From Deltaproteobacteria bacterium (lineage in GTDB: Bacteria; Desulfobacterota; Desulfomonilia; UBA1062), in the NCBI GenBank assembly GCA_018434685.1, contig JAHDOV010000003.1:28302-92301 (forward strand): 64,000 bases of DNA, in the 5' to 3' direction. Positions 25,758-32,004 of this stretch are shown piece by piece. Position 1 is the stretch's first letter; each line of letters begins with the position of its first letter. Both the position numbers and the translations under genes were made by a program. The notes beneath the pieces are model-generated. The model was given only the letters and a program-made list of their open reading frames with translations, was not told where the DNA came from and did no database searches.

Positions 25758-28700
25758 TTGATGTGTGATGATGTAATTGCGTGCCCACGCTGTGGAGTGG
25801 TTGGCGGGCGTTCGGACAGATTCTGCAGACACTGCGGCGTATCCCTGGATCACGGGGGACACGTCCGTGAATATCGCCACGTAACCGCCCTGTTCTCCGA
25901 CCTGTGTGAATATACCCCCCTGACCGAGGAACTCGAACCCGAAGAACTCAAGGATATCATGGACACCCTCTTTGCGAAGTCTGCCCACATCATTGCCGCA
26001 TACGGCGGGAGTGTGGAAAAGTTTGTGGGAGACGGGGTTGTCGCCCTGTTCGGGCTGGACGATATGCACGAGCACCATGCCGTTTCGGCAATTCACGCCG
26101 CACGGGAGATTCACGGGTTTGCCCGCGAGATTGCCGGTGAGTCGTATCCCTGCCTCGGCAGGGGAATCTCCATGCATACCGGCATCAATACCGGCCTGGT
26201 GCTCGTAGATCAGCAGTGGGATGACCGCAATGCCCACGGCGCCTTGGGCACGCCGATCAACATCGCATCCAGGCTTTCAGCCCTGGCAGGCCCGGACGAT
26301 ATACTCATCGGGGAGACGGTCATGACCGATGCGGCGCGTCATTTCACCATCGAAGGCATGGGGAAAAAGCGTCTCAAGGGTGTCCGGGAACCGATGAGGG
26401 TGTTCCGGGTCCTTTCCGCCAGAGAGGTGCCGGTAGGCATCCACCGGCAAGGCGGCATCACCTCGGGCCTGATCGGCCGAAAGAAAGAGCTCGCAGCCCT
26501 TGTGCATGCCTTCGATAACCTGCTGGAGGGGAAGGGTTCGGCGGTGTGTATACACGGGGACCCGGGCGTGGGGAAAAGCAGGCTGATACACGAGTTCAGG
26601 AAACAGGTGCCTAAGCGGACCAGATGGATACATGCCCAGTGCCTGGACCATACGAAAGACACCCCCTACTGTCCGATAACCGGCCTCGCCAGGGCCCTCC
26701 TGGGGATTCGTGAGGGAAGGGACAGCAGGGAAGAGGTGGAAGAGAAGATCAGGGCGTTTTCTTCGGATATGCGGCACAGCGCCTCCCTGATATCTCTTTG
26801 CAACGCGCAGGCCTCTGCCATGCAGGTGATGCCCGGTGAATGGAAGGCCGGGATCTGCGATGCATTCTCATGGCTGATCCGCTCTGCCGGCACTGTCTCG
26901 CCTCTTGTTGTGTGCATAGAGGATATTCACTGGGCGGACCGCTCTACCCTTGACCTGCTGGAATATCTTTTCCAGGACAGGGAGGCAGCAGGCTCGTGTC
27001 TGTTCCTCATCAGCACACGGGCCGTCTCAGAGCTGATCCCGGTTAGTGCGCACATTGGGTTGAACGATCTGGACCGGACAGAAGTTGCAGCAATGCTCGG
27101 GCACATGCTCGAGGGAAATCGTATCCCGGAGGCGGCTGTAACGTATCTGTACCGGGAAACAGGGGGGAATCCGTTCTACATCGAGGAGGTGGTCAACTAT
27201 CTTTTCGAGAAGGGCATTTCCCTGTCGCAGTGTGCTCACGGGGAGATCCCGGGCGGTGTTCCCTCGACCATTCAGGGGCTCATCGCGGCTCGTCTGCTGA
27301 ACCTCGGTGCGGAACTCAAGACGCTGCTGCAGGAGGCATCGGTAATCGGCAAGGTGTTTCCGAAGACCCTCCTGGCGGCGGTAAGTACCCGGCAGACGCA
27401 GTTCGATGCCGGCCTCTGGGGTCTTCAAGAGGCCGGGTTCATCCATGAGTCCGAATCCGGTGAATACCGCTTCCGGCATGCGCTGACCCAGGAAGTGGCC
27501 TATCAGACCCAGCTGAAGCGCCACCGGATGATGATGCACAAGAAGGTGGGCCGGGCACTGGAGCGGATGGGGCGGGCTCCGGGAGATATCTGCGACATGC
27601 TCGCCTACCATTTCGATTGTGCCGGTGAAAAAGACCTCGCGATTCAGTACAGTATCATGGCCGCCCGGAAATATCAGGCCGAGGGAGCATGGGTGGAAGC
27701 TGCCGCCCACTATAGGATCGCCGAGAAATGGCTGCTCGTGACCGCTGAGGCGGACCGTGACCGGGAAGGCCTGGCAGCAGTATGGGAAGGGATCTGGTCA
27801 TGCGCCCGTATCCTCGACCCGAACCTGGCCGTTCGGGCACTGGAATCCCTCCGAGGGCATCATGCCCGCTCTGGCGCGAGCCGGGGCGAGGCCTTTGTGC
27901 TGATCCGCCTCATCAACCTCTATTCTCAAAAGGGTCTGTTCAAAGAAGCTCTCGATACCTTTGAGCAGGCCCTTGAGAGTGCAGGGGACGATGGGATCCT
28001 CCGCAGTGCTGCGCAGACCGCTGTTGCCTACACCTACACCTATCTCGGCAGGCCGGATGTTTCTCTGGGGTATCTGAACGAGGCGAGGCCGGCCCTGGGG
28101 ACGGCGGACAGATTTCTCCTTGCCGTCAACCACCTCACGACCCTTACCGCCTATGTCTGGAAGGGCGCCGTACAGGAAGCCATGGCATGGTACTCGCAGA
28201 CGAAGGACCTCTGCGGGGACTACCTGGATCTCGAACTCATGGCGGAGATCTACCTGGGATACCTTCATTACCTCAGGGGCGATTTCCCTCGGGCGCGGCA
28301 GGTATTCGAGCTGGTGCACGCCCAGGAGAGGAAACTCGGCAGTCTTGCGGGGGGATTATCGTACCTGAGAATCCAGAGCTCCATATACTTCAATGCCCGC
28401 TATACCGGAGAGCTCGACAGGGCCGGTGAAGAGCTCAGGATGTTCGAGGCGCTCGATAACGGGATGAAGGGCTTCCCGGCGCTGATAAGCCTCTATCGCG
28501 CATGGATCGCGGTGGAGAAGGGACAGTGCGAACAGGCACGGGATCTGCTCATGATGGCGCTGCCGGTTTTCGAAGAGGGGATTGCGAACAGGGTTCCCTA
28601 TGCACTCAACGTCCTTGCCGAGGCACTGGAGACCATGGGGGACACCGAGGGGGCCGAACGGGTTGCGCTCAAGGGCATTGCCTGGAATGAACTCAACGGC

Positions 28701-28997
28701 AATCAGGATCAGCTTGTCTGGGCACTGAGGATCATGGGACGGCTCTATCTTCGCCAGGAGATGTTCGATGAGACCCGTGACGCCTTGAAGAGGGCCTCGT
28801 TTCTGGCCAGGGCGTGTTCCATGCGGCCGCACACTGCATGGACCCTGGAGTCCTGGGGAGATTATTTTCGGTCGACGGGTCAGGCAAAACGGGCGGATGC
28901 CTGTTATCACAGGGCTGTGGCCCTGTGGAGAGGGATGGCTAATCCGTATCAGGCAGGCAAACTGTCTTCACGGATTATCAACACGGGGCATTCCTGA
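25758..28997 (+). CDS. Multidomain signalling protein: N-terminal Zn-ribbon, class III adenylyl/guanylyl cyclase domain, STAND/AAA+ P-loop NTPase, C-terminal TPR repeats
   Basis: CPRCG...CRHCG zinc ribbon. Cyclase core ALFSDLCEYT...KFVGDGVVALFG. Walker A GDPGVGKSRL. Long helical TPR-like C-terminus. Confidence 0.85.
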   Translation: MMCDDVIACPRCGVVGGRSDRFCRHCGVSLDHGGHVREYRHVTALFSDLCEYTPLTEELEPEELKDIMDTLFAKSAHIIAAYGGSVEKFVGDGVVALFGLDDMHEHHAVSAIHAAREIHGFAREIAGESYPCLGRGISMHTGINTGLVLVDQQWDDRNAHGALGTPINIASRLSALAGPDDILIGETVMTDAARHFTIEGMGKKRLKGVREPMRVFRVLSAREVPVGIHRQGGITSGLIGRKKELAALVHAFDNLLEGKGSAVCIHGDPGVGKSRLIHEFRKQVPKRTRWIHAQCLDHTKDTPYCPITGLARALLGIREGRDSREEVEEKIRAFSSDMRHSASLISLCNAQASAMQVMPGEWKAGICDAFSWLIRSAGTVSPLVVCIEDIHWADRSTLDLLEYLFQDREAAGSCLFLISTRAVSELIPVSAHIGLNDLDRTEVAAMLGHMLEGNRIPEAAVTYLYRETGGNPFYIEEVVNYLFEKGISLSQCAHGEIPGGVPSTIQGLIAARLLNLGAELKTLLQEASVIGKVFPKTLLAAVSTRQTQFDAGLWGLQEAGFIHESESGEYRFRHALTQEVAYQTQLKRHRMMMHKKVGRALERMGRAPGDICDMLAYHFDCAGEKDLAIQYSIMAARKYQAEGAWVEAAAHYRIAEKWLLVTAEADRDREGLAAVWEGIWSCARILDPNLAVRALESLRGHHARSGASRGEAFVLIRLINLYSQKGLFKEALDTFEQALESAGDDGILRSAAQTAVAYTYTYLGRPDVSLGYLNEARPALGTADRFLLAVNHLTTLTAYVWKGAVQEAMAWYSQTKDLCGDYLDLELMAEIYLGYLHYLRGDFPRARQVFELVHAQERKLGSLAGGLSYLRIQSSIYFNARYTGELDRAGEELRMFEALDNGMKGFPALISLYRAWIAVEKGQCEQARDLLMMALPVFEEGIANRVPYALNVLAEALETMGDTEGAERVALKGIAWNELNGNQDQLVWALRIMGRLYLRQEMFDETRDALKRASFLARACSMRPHTAWTLESWGDYFRSTGQAKRADACYHRAVALWRGMANPYQAGKLSSRIINTGHS

Positions 28998-29113
28998 GTG
29001 CAGGACGCCCCCCGCGGTGCCTCAGAGGCACCAGGATGAGGCTTCGCCCGGCCGACAGGGGCAACCCGAATAGGTATTGCACAGAAGCCGGAGGTGTATT
29101 ATTTAAAAGGGCA

Positions 29114-30121
29114 ATGCCCCAGCTTGTACTGTACCAGAAATATTCCAGGAGCGAGGTGCTCGAGATATTCTCACCCGGGACACCCTTCATCCCGCAGAGG
29201 GGTGCATGGGGGCTCCATACGATCGTGGGGCTCCATGGCCGGCCGGGTGACTGGGTCTTTTTCACGACCCAGGAGCATACAGAGGGTTCATCCGAAGAAG
29301 GGATAACGAAAGACGGGGTCTTTACCTGGAAATCAAAGGCCGGCCAGGCCCTGAAAGACCCGCAGATACGGCAGTTCATCACCCATGACGAACTGCGCAA
29401 TACGATCTATCTCTTCTGCCGGCAGAAAAAGCAGGGGAGATACACCTACCTGGGCAGGCTGAAATATCTGCGGCATGACGCGTCGCGCGAGAAGCCGGTG
29501 TATATCCAGTGGCAGATCCTTGACTGGAATATATCCCAGAAAGAGTTGAACCGGTCCGGTCTGGTCCTGCAGGACGAGAGGCAGCCGGGAGACCATGAAC
29601 GCCTCCCCTTGAGAAGCATGCTCCGGGAGACACCCCCCCCGCTGAATCTGCTTGAGGACGGTATCACAGGCGATGCCTTTCGACGCACCAGGACACCGGA
29701 TTTTTCCGCTGAAGAGGTACTGGATACAGAGCTCGTTATTGCCGGAGAAAAGATCGTGATAGCCCATGAAAAGAGAGCGCTCATCCAGGCGGGCAGGGCC
29801 GATCTCGCCCACAAGGTGCGGCATGTCGCGGCAATAGAGGGTGAGCACGCCGGCTATGATATCGAGTCGTATACCGCAGAGGGGGCGGTGAAGTATATCG
29901 AGGTGAAGACTACCAGGGGAGGTGCCGAAGCCCCGTTCTACCTGAGAACCCACGAGCTGGAATTTGCCAGACAGCATGCCGGCGAGTACTACCTCTACCG
30001 GGTGTACGAGTATGACGAGGCCTTCAATGCCGGGAAGTTATACATCGTCACCGGAGATATCGAGGAGATTTTCCGCCTCACCCCGACAGGATACCGGGCT
30101 ACCCGCTCCAGACCTTCCTGA
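29114..30121 (+). CDS. DUF3883 (NOV C-terminal, PD-(D/E)xK nuclease-like) domain protein with uncharacterised N-terminal beta-rich domain
   Basis: The C-terminus GYDIESY...VKYIEVKTT...FYLRTHELEF...YYLYRVYEY matches the DUF3883 core with a D...E-x-K arrangement. Start set at the Met after the upstream gene's stop; the ORF track begins at 29036. Confidence 0.7.
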   Translation: MPQLVLYQKYSRSEVLEIFSPGTPFIPQRGAWGLHTIVGLHGRPGDWVFFTTQEHTEGSSEEGITKDGVFTWKSKAGQALKDPQIRQFITHDELRNTIYLFCRQKKQGRYTYLGRLKYLRHDASREKPVYIQWQILDWNISQKELNRSGLVLQDERQPGDHERLPLRSMLRETPPPLNLLEDGITGDAFRRTRTPDFSAEEVLDTELVIAGEKIVIAHEKRALIQAGRADLAHKVRHVAAIEGEHAGYDIESYTAEGAVKYIEVKTTRGGAEAPFYLRTHELEFARQHAGEYYLYRVYEYDEAFNAGKLYIVTGDIEEIFRLTPTGYRATRSRPS

Positions 30122-30379
30122 GATCTTTTCTGATAACCAACCACTTCAGTCTAAAGGCTTTTTTGATTATCGATTCACCAGTCCATTTATTCGTTAATAT
30201 TTTTCCCCATCCAGGCGATACGGTCACTATACGGGCCCGGCATGAGCCCGGGCGTGTTCTTTGACAATCGAAGAAAGAGAGCCATGTGTATTCTTTGAAC
30301 CCAGAGAATAGACATGGGTAAAAGAGTGACGGGTGCATAAGGGCCGACCAGGGGCGGATAATCAACCGCCCTGCCTTTA

Positions 30380-30450
30380 GCCAAACCACAGGCGACTGTG
30401 GGACGGAAAGCCACGGGTCTGCTTTTGCAGACAGCCGGGCCGCCTCCTCA
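30380..30450 (+). promoter_or_regulatory. c-di-GMP-I (GEMM) riboswitch-type aptamer, tandem copy 1
   Basis: GCCAAACC-ACAG-GCGA-CTGT-GGGACGGAAAGCCACGGG, then the hairpin GTCTGC-TTTT-GCAGAC. It aligns with the Vc2 aptamer core GGCAAACC-[GNRA hairpin]-GGGACGCAAAGCC.CGG. Confidence 0.65.
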
Positions 30451-30518
30451 GCCAAACCAGGGGCAACTCTGGGACGGAAAGTCACGGGTCCGCTTCAGGG
30501 CGGACGGCCGGGCTGCCT
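30451..30518 (+). promoter_or_regulatory. c-di-GMP-I (GEMM) riboswitch-type aptamer, tandem copy 2
   Basis: GCCAAACC-AGGG-GCAA-CTCT-GGGACGGAAAGTCACGGG, then GTCCGC-TTCAGG-GCGGAC. Confidence 0.65.
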
Positions 30519-30548
30519 GAGAAGGTTTCAACAGCAGCAAGGATTCAC

Positions 30549-30618
30549 GCCAAACCAGGGGTAACCCTGGGACGGAAAGCCACGGGTCCGCTTCAGCGCG
30601 GACAGCCGGGTTGCCTGG
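30549..30618 (+). promoter_or_regulatory. c-di-GMP-I (GEMM) riboswitch-type aptamer, tandem copy 3 (27 nt upstream of start codon region)
   Basis: GCCAAACC-AGGG-GTAA-CCCT-GGGACGGAAAGCCACGGG, then GTCCGC-TTCAGC-GCGGAC. The GNRA loops vary between copies (GCGA/GCAA/GTAA) while the stems co-vary. Confidence 0.65.
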
Positions 30619-30644
30619 AGAAACTGATCAGAAAGGAGTACCAG

Positions 30645-31139
30645 ATGAAAAGAAAAAGCCTATTGGCTGTGTTGTGCATAATCGGACTGCTCATGCTCCC
30701 TCATGCAAGTTTTGCAAAGCTCAGCACCCTGACTGAGGATCAGCTCGGAGAGGTTGTCGGTCAGGCCGGGATAGCCTTCAGCGTGACGAATCTCGGCATC
30801 AACATGGTCATGGATACGCTCAGCTACGGGGATCTCGACGGGCTGGGCGGCGATACACAGGCAGGCTTCCTGAGCCTGTGTGATGTTACCTACCGCGCAA
30901 GCATGAATTTCCCGACCCCGATGACCCTGGACGTCGTCACGATGGCGACCCGGTTGGGCACCGAGGTCTCGAGCCTCAACTTCCATCTGAACGACATGTC
31001 CATCGATATCGATGAATTCACTATCGGTGCCATCCGGATCGGGCCCGAGCCGGGAGCGGGACCGAGCCTGGGCAGTTTCGGCATCTACGACATGCACATG
31101 GATATTACCGGAGATGTACAGATATCAACAAGACCTTGA
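30645..31139 (+). CDS. Small secreted hypothetical protein (riboswitch-controlled)
   Basis: Signal peptide MKRKSLLAVLCIIGLLMLPHASFA. Conserved-looking LTEDQLGEVVGQAG block. 164 aa, Gly/Asp-rich. Confidence 0.55.
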   Translation: MKRKSLLAVLCIIGLLMLPHASFAKLSTLTEDQLGEVVGQAGIAFSVTNLGINMVMDTLSYGDLDGLGGDTQAGFLSLCDVTYRASMNFPTPMTLDVVTMATRLGTEVSSLNFHLNDMSIDIDEFTIGAIRIGPEPGAGPSLGSFGIYDMHMDITGDVQISTRP

Positions 31140-31203
31140 CCCTGTATCCGTTGCTCTTTTACCGGCCTTTCTTGCCGCCTCTTGTTCAGCCGCCGCCTCG
31201 GGA

Positions 31204-32004
31204 TTACTGACGGATGAGCCTGCAGGGCCTGGTCTCTTCGGGGGTGATCTCCACGTTTGCACGGACAGGATTGATGTCGATGCCCCCCCTGCGGGTGAAC
31301 AGGCAGGATACCGTGAGTCGTTGTGGGCGGCAGCGCTCCATGATATGGCGGTAGATCTGTTCACAGCACTGCTCGCCGAAGCCTTCGTGGTCCCGGTAGG
31401 AACAGATGTAACTCAGCAGAGCCTCATCCCGTATCTTTCTGCCTGCATAGTCTATGATCACGCTGCCCCAGTCGGGCTGATGGGTGATGGGACAGAAGGT
31501 GCGCAGCACATGGGAATAGAGCACCTCACGGGCCTGGTGCGTCCCGGTCGCGAGCAGCATGGGGTCGGGGAGTGCCGAGTGGATCTCGATATCCAGGGAA
31601 TCGATGCAGGTGCCTTCAGGAGAGGTGTGCCAGGGTATGGATGCCATCGCGGTCTCGTCGTAGACCACGACCGACAGCCAGGGGGTCTCCAAAATGCGTT
31701 CGAGATCGGCCATCAGGAGCCGGGAAAGCTCGCCTAGCGAACCGAACCTCCTGTTCGACAGTCCGTGCAGGTAGAGCTTTAAGGACTTCGATTCGACGAT
31801 ATTCCTGCTCTGCCGGGGATAGATCAGCTCGAGGATCCCGATACACGGTTTGCCTCTGGCAGTGAGCCATGCCAGCTCATACGAGCGCCACAGGTCGAAG
31901 CCGAACATGGGCAGGGCAGGCTCCGGCCGGGCAATGGGGAACAGGATGGAAGGGTCGTACCTGCTGGGAGACGGGGTCTGTTTTCCGAGAGGGATGTCAC
32001 TCAT
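31204..32004 (-). CDS. queF: NADPH-dependent 7-cyano-7-deazaguanine reductase (two-domain YqcD type)
   Basis: QueF motif E(S)KSLKLYL and the catalytic Cys region; ~270 aa bimodular type. Confidence 0.88.
   Translation of the reverse strand: MSDIPLGKQTPSPSRYDPSILFPIARPEPALPMFGFDLWRSYELAWLTARGKPCIGILELIYPRQSRNIVESKSLKLYLHGLSNRRFGSLGELSRLLMADLERILETPWLSVVVYDETAMASIPWHTSPEGTCIDSLDIEIHSALPDPMLLATGTHQAREVLYSHVLRTFCPITHQPDWGSVIIDYAGRKIRDEALLSYICSYRDHEGFGEQCCEQIYRHIMERCRPQRLTVSCLFTRRGGIDINPVRANVEITPEETRPCRLIRQ

Follow-up and report, generated by a model that had tools for sequence, protein, structure and literature searches.

Decisions taken through c-di-GMP are binary lifestyle switches, and it is assumed that arranging riboswitches in tandem makes the response sharper. 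Tandems of the c-di-GMP-I class are the most frequent known, with 347 doublets and 12 triplets (PMC9481103); a preliminary description of the locus studied here, which had called triple tandems rare, was right in that they are uncommon, but they are already catalogued and one of them has been characterised (PMC4759541). Contiguous c-di-GMP riboswitches are enriched in Thermodesulfobacteriota (PMC12452182), and the surveys class the tandem c-di-GMP-I riboswitches as multiple platforms that behave pseudo-cooperatively (PMC9481103, PMC12452182). In the characterised triplet, Bc3-5 of Bacillus thuringiensis, each of Bc3, Bc4 and Bc5 is a complete riboswitch with its own terminator, and the system is a transcriptional ON switch (PMC4759541). 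A different arrangement is found in the tandem glycine riboswitch, where two adjacent homologous aptamers for the same ligand stand before one platform. The GEMM-Ib riboswitches of Geobacter share the overall aptamer fold but bind 3'3'-cGAMP and, to our knowledge, the known examples act through terminators.

The locus described here resembles Bc3-5 in having three c-di-GMP-I aptamers in one 5' UTR before the gene of a surface or secreted protein; it differs in the host phylum, in the absence of terminators, in the spacers of 6 and 31 nt and, as predicted, in the presence of one platform close to the Shine-Dalgarno (SD) sequence. Like the tandem glycine riboswitch it has conserved linkers and adjacent homologous aptamers, predicted to share one ligand, and a single platform is predicted in silico; fold and ligand are others, however, and the aptamers are three instead of two. 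The spacing below 20 nt of glycine-type adjacent aptamers is seen between aptamers 1 and 2 (6 nt), whereas 31 nt free of any terminator separate aptamers 2 and 3. Each unit is a member of the known class RF01051; what may be new is that three abutting aptamers share linker strands and one SD platform, and that this is conserved over a class-level clade. We estimate at about 60% the probability that the leader is one riboswitch, made of three fused canonical c-di-GMP-I aptamers with a single translational platform, and not three complete riboswitches in series.

The window, i.e., the whole stretch of 64,000 nt that was analysed, contains three copies of a 69-nt direct repeat, identified by a repeat search, which start at 30380, 30451 and 30549 (spacing of 71 and 98 nt). 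Each copy consists of GCCAAACC, a GNRA-capped hairpin, GGGACGGAAAG(C/U)CACGGG and a second hairpin, and the loop of the first hairpin is GCGA in aptamer 1, GCAA in aptamer 2 and GUAA in aptamer 3. The preliminary description had recognised in these repeats three tandem GEMM (c-di-GMP-I) aptamers and had indicated the Rfam covariance model RF01051 and the conserved fold as the way to check it. As reported in Table 1, all three units scored well above the gathering score of this model (35 bits), and when the RF01051 structure was threaded on the three copies (21 pairs each) all the model pairs formed except for one of the 63, a non-standard A.C in aptamer 1. The stems vary between the copies in the way that had been quoted (CACAG/CUGUG, CAGGG/CUCUG and CAGGG/CCCUG); the start at 30380 that had been given lies inside aptamer 1, where it is the G20, but the Rfam match begins 10 nt earlier. 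In the scan of the whole window at gathering thresholds, aptamers 1 and 3 were matched and aptamer 2 was absent, to be recovered when searched alone, most likely because the flank of the model overlaps aptamer 1 by 7 nt; the same scan, over the full 64 kb, revealed no family besides c-di-GMP-I.

Table 1. Elements of the leader and the gene downstream, numbered from the first nucleotide of the window.
Feature	Positions	Strand	Sequence and remarks
Terminator-like hairpin	30235-30253	+	G+C-rich, followed by GUGUUCUUUG; sole such site in 30000-31400
Invariant box	30258-30267	+	TCTTTGACAA, contains TTGACA; from the orthologue alignment
Conserved hairpin HP2	30282-30317	+	CCAUGUGUAUUCU...AGAAUAGACAUGG; 14 pairs, 4 compensatory across 9 loci
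Element E0	30316-30330	+	GGGUAAAAGAGUGAC; first 11 nt GGGUAAAAGAG (30316-30326) invariant where orthologues contain the region
Insert hairpin, lineage-specific, in the linker before aptamer 1	30339-30378	+	AAGGGC...GCCUUU enclosing GGGGCGG...CCGCCCU
c-di-GMP-I aptamer 1	30370-30447	+	RF01051, 54.6 bits; G20 = 30380, A47 = 30407, C92 = 30443
Linker J12	30442-30451	+	GCCUCCUCAG; CUCCU 30444-30448 complementary to SD
c-di-GMP-I aptamer 2	30441-30520	+	RF01051, 57.2 bits; G20 = 30451, A47 = 30478, C92 = 30516
Linker J23	30515-30534	+	GCCUGAGAAGGUUUCAACAG; CUGA 30517-30520 (T3), GGUUUC 30524-30529 (T2), CAG 30532-30534 (T1)
c-di-GMP-I aptamer 3	30539-30618	+	RF01051, 65.6 bits; G20 = 30549, A47 = 30576, C92 = 30614
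Tail	30615-30631	+	CUG-GA-GAAACU-GA-UCAG; T1 30615-30617, T2 30620-30625, T3 30628-30631
Shine-Dalgarno	30634-30638	+	AGGAG, 6 nt before AUG; predicted partner J12 CUCCU (helix T4)
DUF6160 gene	30645-31139	+	164 aa, N-terminal signal peptide; Pfam 33 bits vs cut-off 27

Compared with Vc2 of Vibrio cholerae, the type example of RF01051, each unit shows the P2 hairpin with its GNRA loop, the P3 hairpin, the junction sequence and the bases G20, A47 and C92. On the other hand, beside G20 the junction is closed by a C-G pair where Vc2 has G-C, the loops of P3 are short, and aptamer 2 has no room for the canonical J1/2 linker or for a separate 5' strand of P1. The aptamers and the gene that follows them share one strand, and the last aptamer of the 5' leader ends 27 nt before the AUG at 30645. 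There are, in short, three genuine c-di-GMP-I (GEMM-I) aptamers in a single 5' leader, and we are strongly confident in predicting that they form a genuine triple c-di-GMP sensor controlling the DUF6160 gene.

The ligand can be predicted from the bases that contact it. In this class G20 and C92 make the contacts that set specificity, the cGAMP aptamers have an A at position 20, and the wild-type G20 discriminates strongly against cGAMP (10 µM compared to a picomolar affinity for c-di-GMP) (PMC6140456). Since the Rfam alignments show the canonical G20, A47 and C92 in each of the three copies, c-di-GMP is the predicted ligand of all of them. The identity of the ligand had previously been left open for each copy, with cGAMP as a possibility suggested by Geobacter-like bacteria. 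The specificity position is instead a G in all three (30380, 30451 and 30549), accompanied by A47 and C92, and the relatives of this locus are MAGs of Desulfomonilia (Thermodesulfobacteriota) and not Geobacter, so that the host is taken to be a Desulfomonilia-type bacterium; with the Geobacter riboswitches the locus has in common the overall aptamer fold and the host superphylum. The GEMM-Ib (3'3'-cGAMP) subclass, which needs an A at the equivalent of Vc2 G20, was rejected for all three copies.

A multi-input gate, in which at least one copy senses 3'3'-cGAMP or another dinucleotide, is very improbable. Variants of GEMM-I with changed specificity do occur in the same phylum (PMC9481103, PMC6140456) and, in a scan at relaxed E-value in which only the best match of the clan is shown, the GGC variant RF03167 replaced RF01051 as the listed model for 3/3 copies. 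The scores for RF03167 (58.2, 56 and 49.2 bits) are, however, below its threshold of 59, and the G47 that defines this variant is absent, A47 being present in all the copies; moreover, the three bases read above are those of c-di-GMP aptamers, and G20 disfavours cGAMP by the margin just cited. The c-di-GMP-I-UAU variant (RF03168), with U at both 20 and 92, was also discarded, as the copies have G20 and C92; the names of these variants stand for positions 20/47/92, as we verified on the consensus lines of RF03167 and RF03168.

The same leader recurs in syntenic loci, about 20 in number, of metagenomes and Desulfomonilia-type MAGs, where the protein encoded downstream is 38–74% identical. A genome scan with 17-mers gave mostly chance matches, about 10 of the 111 loci being relevant. 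The synteny consists of a cyclase-AAA-TPR gene, the DUF6160 gene and queF/queC/queE, and the homologues of DUF6160 come from metagenomes and from MAGs labelled Desulfomonilia, Deltaproteobacteria, Thermodesulfobacteriota, Syntrophaceae UBA1062 and the phosphite oxidiser Phox-21. The leaders can be aligned through to the start codon, beginning some 130 nt before the first aptamer. Three intact aptamers are present in 14 of the 20 distinct leaders; the first one is degenerate in L107, L128 and L109 and missing in L001, and two further leaders (L049 and L136) are cut by the end of the contig.

The copies group mostly by position and not by genome. Copy 3 is the best conserved between genomes (mean identity of 85%, compared to 77–78% for copies 1 and 2), while in the window aptamers 2 and 3 are 91% identical, suggesting some homogenisation between copies in this clade. 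Among 18 aligned aptamer copies, 97.6% of the cells pair and five pairs are compensatory, having changed on both sides; the covariation score exceeded that of 500 out of 500 shuffles and of all the slid controls. The syntenic loci, with protein identity down to 38%, and the compensatory changes indicate that the array is old and under selection. This agrees with the proposal of the preliminary description that the copies are functional paralogues and not an artefact of recent duplication, which is supported by the Rfam scores as well and is qualified by the similarity of aptamers 2 and 3.

Some of the relatives deserve a separate mention. In L107 (3198-3280, in coordinates of the minus strand), L128 and L109 the core of the first aptamer is lost, GGGACGGAAAG being changed to GGAACUCCAAGG or GGGACAAGAAAG, with J12 intact, a condition reminiscent of the "ghost" aptamers of glycine riboswitches. 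In L001 (2735-2763) aptamer 1 and J12 are wholly absent. As the core is lost in three relatives and the entire aptamer in a fourth, aptamer 1 seems dispensable. In aptamers 2 and 3 of L007, L136 and L133, CAAACC becomes CACACC or CACUCC together with a change of GGGACGG to GGGCCGG or GGGUCGG within the same aptamers; these joint changes may represent a covarying tertiary contact of the GEMM-I junction. In L132 (1-75), a more distant DUF6160 locus, the usual tail is replaced by GAAGAAAGAUUUCUUUCUUCUGAAAGGAG; there the alternatives are an SD-sequestering hairpin of −12.3 kcal/mol or a hairpin between GAAGAAAG and CUUUCUUC, in a fragment whose contig ends 45 nt upstream of the AUG and which is too short to interpret.

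Upstream of aptamer 1 the orthologues carry, at the place of the terminator-like hairpin of 30235-30253, a hairpin of different sequence. The upstream module that follows (the box, HP2 and E0; 30258-30330) matched no family when compared with Rfam, and it is present in the orthologous loci that reach that far upstream. This conserved module indicates that the transcript starts upstream of 30282, and HP2 probably belongs to the transcribed leader. The TTGACA at 30261 was considered as a −35 element and rejected: it has no −10 at a constant distance (14 to 20 nt separate it from the conserved element that comes next), and with such a promoter the start site would fall inside the covarying HP2. 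The consensus of E0 across the orthologues, GGGUAAAAGAGUrAC, resembles the SD region (AAAGGAGUA), and its GAG could, judging from the sequence, pair with C93-U94-C95 of aptamer 1. The insert hairpin is missing from the orthologues with a short leader.

The linkers are more conserved than the stems of the aptamers. Among the 19 leaders with a J12, 14 have GCCUCCUCAG, two have ACC for GCC and three have UCCUUCA(AA/G)G; the consensus of J23 is RCCUGAGAAGGUUUC-NN-CAG and that of the tail, extended to the SD, is NCCUG-RW-GAAMCU-NA-UCRG-AA-AGGAG. From C93 of aptamer 1 to G20 of aptamer 2 there are 6 nt (GCC-UCCUCA-G), and aptamer 3 ends 18 nt before the SD. A search for terminator-like sites in 30254-31400 gave none, so that none is present between or after the aptamers.

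This bears on whether the three units could be independent riboswitches, pseudo-cooperative like Bc3-5 and acting on elongation, on Rho access or on mRNA stability. Such an architecture is the one reported for the known c-di-GMP-I tandems (PMC9481103, PMC4759541, PMC12452182), and each aptamer passes the family model alone. No aptamer, however, is followed by a terminator-like hairpin with a U-tract, and the 6 nt between aptamers 1 and 2 are too few for a platform, 20 nt being the minimum considered in PMC12452182. We regard it as improbable, though less so than the multi-input gate.

The linkers themselves would fit one riboswitch with a common platform. According to the folding models, the tail is predicted to prolong P1 of aptamer 3, of which it would supply the 3' strand by pairing along J23: T1 (CAG:CUG) is the canonical start of aptamer 3 P1 at its C93, and it is followed by T2 (GGUUUC:GAAACU) and by T3 (CUGA:UCAG), which departs from C93 of aptamer 2. 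Alternatively, the stretch 30517-30525 of J23 can pair with J12. The J23:tail duplex was calculated at −12.6 to −16.2 kcal/mol in nine loci; in the window the value is −13.7 kcal/mol, and 2 of 2000 shuffles were as good. With shuffled tails as a control, 0–7 of 2000 equalled the natural duplex in eight of the nine loci, and 25 of 2000 in L109. The bases that vary between loci fall in two predicted internal loops of this duplex. At one position of T2 six loci have U-A, L136 has A-U and L109 has G-C, and 11 of the 20 loci have a mismatch there; in T3, one pair is replaced by a wobble in L072 and L049. Because the linker helices are almost invariant, covariation support for them is thin. Two other candidate elements were rejected: a hairpin or dimer site formed by the palindrome CUGAUCAG, whose third base varies uncompensated and which falls in a predicted internal loop, and a hairpin that would enclose the SD locally (in the window, CUGG...CCAG), which is not conserved in the orthologues.

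From these pairings we infer that the linkers of the leader can adopt two mutually exclusive folds. In fold A the tail would zip onto J23 as the extended P1 of aptamer 3 and, directly beyond T3, the CUCCU of J12 would pair with the AGGAG of the SD, forming T4; every helix would start exactly at the C93 of an aptamer, and the three pockets would remain free. In unconstrained folding the CUCCU:SD pairing, which joins segments about 185 nt apart, is in the MFE or is substantially probable in most orthologues. In fold B, J12 would pair with J23 (GCCUCCUCAG with CUGAGAAGGU), the SD would be freed, and two ligand-contact bases would be buried, G20 in aptamer 2 and C92 in aptamer 1. The J12:J23 helix, which is the one selected by RNAalifold, was calculated at −6.8 to −8.8 kcal/mol, with 24–344 of 2000 shuffles as good; in the clade of the window it joins the G20 and the C93 of aptamer 2 to each other and the C92 of aptamer 1 to G30525, bases needed by the ligand or by P1 of aptamer 3, and it also takes up two bases of T2. 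When the two folds were forced, their total energies were 0.4–2.7 kcal/mol apart in 15 out of 15 leaders tested, a small gap that fits what a switch needs, in a nearest-neighbour model that leaves out tertiary contacts, the energy of the ligand and co-transcriptional kinetics.

On the basis of these models, a single SD-based platform shared by the three aptamers appears rather probable. The points against it are that the complementarity of J12 to J23 alone could explain the conservation of J12, and that the SD would be conserved in any case, the match of CUCCU to AGGAG being therefore possibly coincidental; moreover, L001 is without aptamer 1 and J12, and in L072 and L107 the anti-SD helix hardly forms in silico.

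The direction of the switch is less clear than the existence of the platform. Binding of the ligand needs G20 and C92 free and, in this family, stabilises the helix that begins after C92, and for this reason c-di-GMP is predicted to favour fold A, in which translation is OFF. Up to three ligands would then act on one stack of helices, and the response could be steep. We approximated the bound state by keeping G20, A47 and C92 of each copy unpaired and enforcing only two junction pairs. With this proxy the probability of the anti-SD:SD pairing rose from about 0.01–0.61 to about 0.79–0.96 in 13 of 16 orthologues, and that of J12:J23 fell to 0. The models would therefore suggest that c-di-GMP represses translation, a prediction to which we assign even odds. 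Against it, most loci have the SD-sequestered fold as their MFE even with no ligand, from which the usual reasoning would lead to an ON switch, and the invariant GGGUAAAAGAG is like an SD mimic placed where the 5' strand of aptamer 1 P1 belongs, which also fits ON.

The same triple aptamer with the same single platform could thus work in the opposite sense, c-di-GMP turning translation ON by locking CUCCU into helices of P1 type (the GAG of E0 with C93-U94-C95 for aptamer 1, J12:J23 for aptamer 2) and releasing the SD. The SD:anti-SD fold would then be the usual apo state of an ON switch, and the invariant E0 element AAAAGAGUA, which mimics the SD, stands at the canonical 5' position of aptamer 1 P1 with a linker to this aptamer of about 15 nt, like that of aptamer 3; RNAalifold, as mentioned, chooses J12:J23 for aptamer 2. 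Also in favour of this direction, c-di-GMP commonly induces secreted adhesin or matrix proteins. On the other hand, J12:J23 leaves aptamer 2 without a J1/2 linker and, in the clade of the window, occupies by pairing C92 of aptamer 1 as well as G20 of aptamer 2, which are bases that the ligand needs free (PMC6140456). Moreover, the best-conserved aptamer 3 would have no role or an opposing one, and E0 is intact where aptamer 1 has decayed (L107, L128 and L109). On balance we hold an ON switch unlikely.

Within the OFF reading, the helices that sequester the ribosome binding site could be the aptamers' own P1 helices, making of the leader a nested device and a cooperative, ultrasensitive translational OFF switch. 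The J23:tail helix would have the pocket of aptamer 3 at one end and that of aptamer 2 at the other, and the SD:anti-SD helix would begin at C93 of aptamer 1, so that as many as three molecules of c-di-GMP would hold together one continuous stack of helices. We propose this nested arrangement tentatively, as a doubtful refinement; if true, it would be a design not described for any cyclic-dinucleotide riboswitch.

The broader reading of one riboswitch with a single platform has implications of its own. Whereas the sole characterised triple tandem consists of three independent transcriptional units, here three sensors with shared linker strands are predicted to converge on one SD platform; if true, the leader would be a natural test case to distinguish real cooperativity from pseudo-cooperativity in a second-messenger riboswitch, as well as a compact component for building ultrasensitive synthetic reporters of c-di-GMP. 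The leader also links DUF6160, an uncharacterised secreted family, with the c-di-GMP signalling of Desulfomonilia; this group is uncultured and comprises phosphite-oxidising relatives that are common in anaerobic digesters.

The AUG of the DUF6160 gene is preceded by AAAGGAG, and the gene is monocistronic, as queF/queC/queE follow it on the opposite strand. Among the NCBIfam models its product weakly matched FilA, a putative pilus protein (E = 2.7e-4, well short of the cut-off); a sequence search of the PDB found no relative, the AlphaFold model was unusable (mean pLDDT of 39), and a literature search on DUF6160 found nothing informative. Upstream lie the cyclase-AAA-TPR gene and a NOV_C/DUF3427 gene. 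The former (25758-28997) encodes a large protein with zinc-ribbon, class III nucleotidyl cyclase, AAA_16 and TPR regions, and is directly upstream of the riboswitch-controlled gene in all the syntenic loci. The NOV_C/DUF3427 gene (29036-30121) is present in the window, L001, L009 and L010 and is missing from other syntenic loci (L002-L008); it looks like a lineage-specific insertion beside the leader.

The window also contains, at 76-999, what the preliminary description had called a REC-GGDEF protein. The GGDDF motif and the GGDEF domain are real, Pfam covering residues 128-212 only (E = 1e-12), but no REC domain was assigned, as the receiver-like N-terminal region gave no Pfam match at E ≤ 1e-3; this region may be a degenerate pseudo-receiver. 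Finally, in L010 (1028-1804) and in the database proteins P0002, P0004 and P0007, the DUF6160 ORF has been called too long, upstream through the leader, giving products of 258 and 208 aa compared to 164 aa; the DUF6160 database entries therefore include N-terminal artefacts translated from aptamer RNA.
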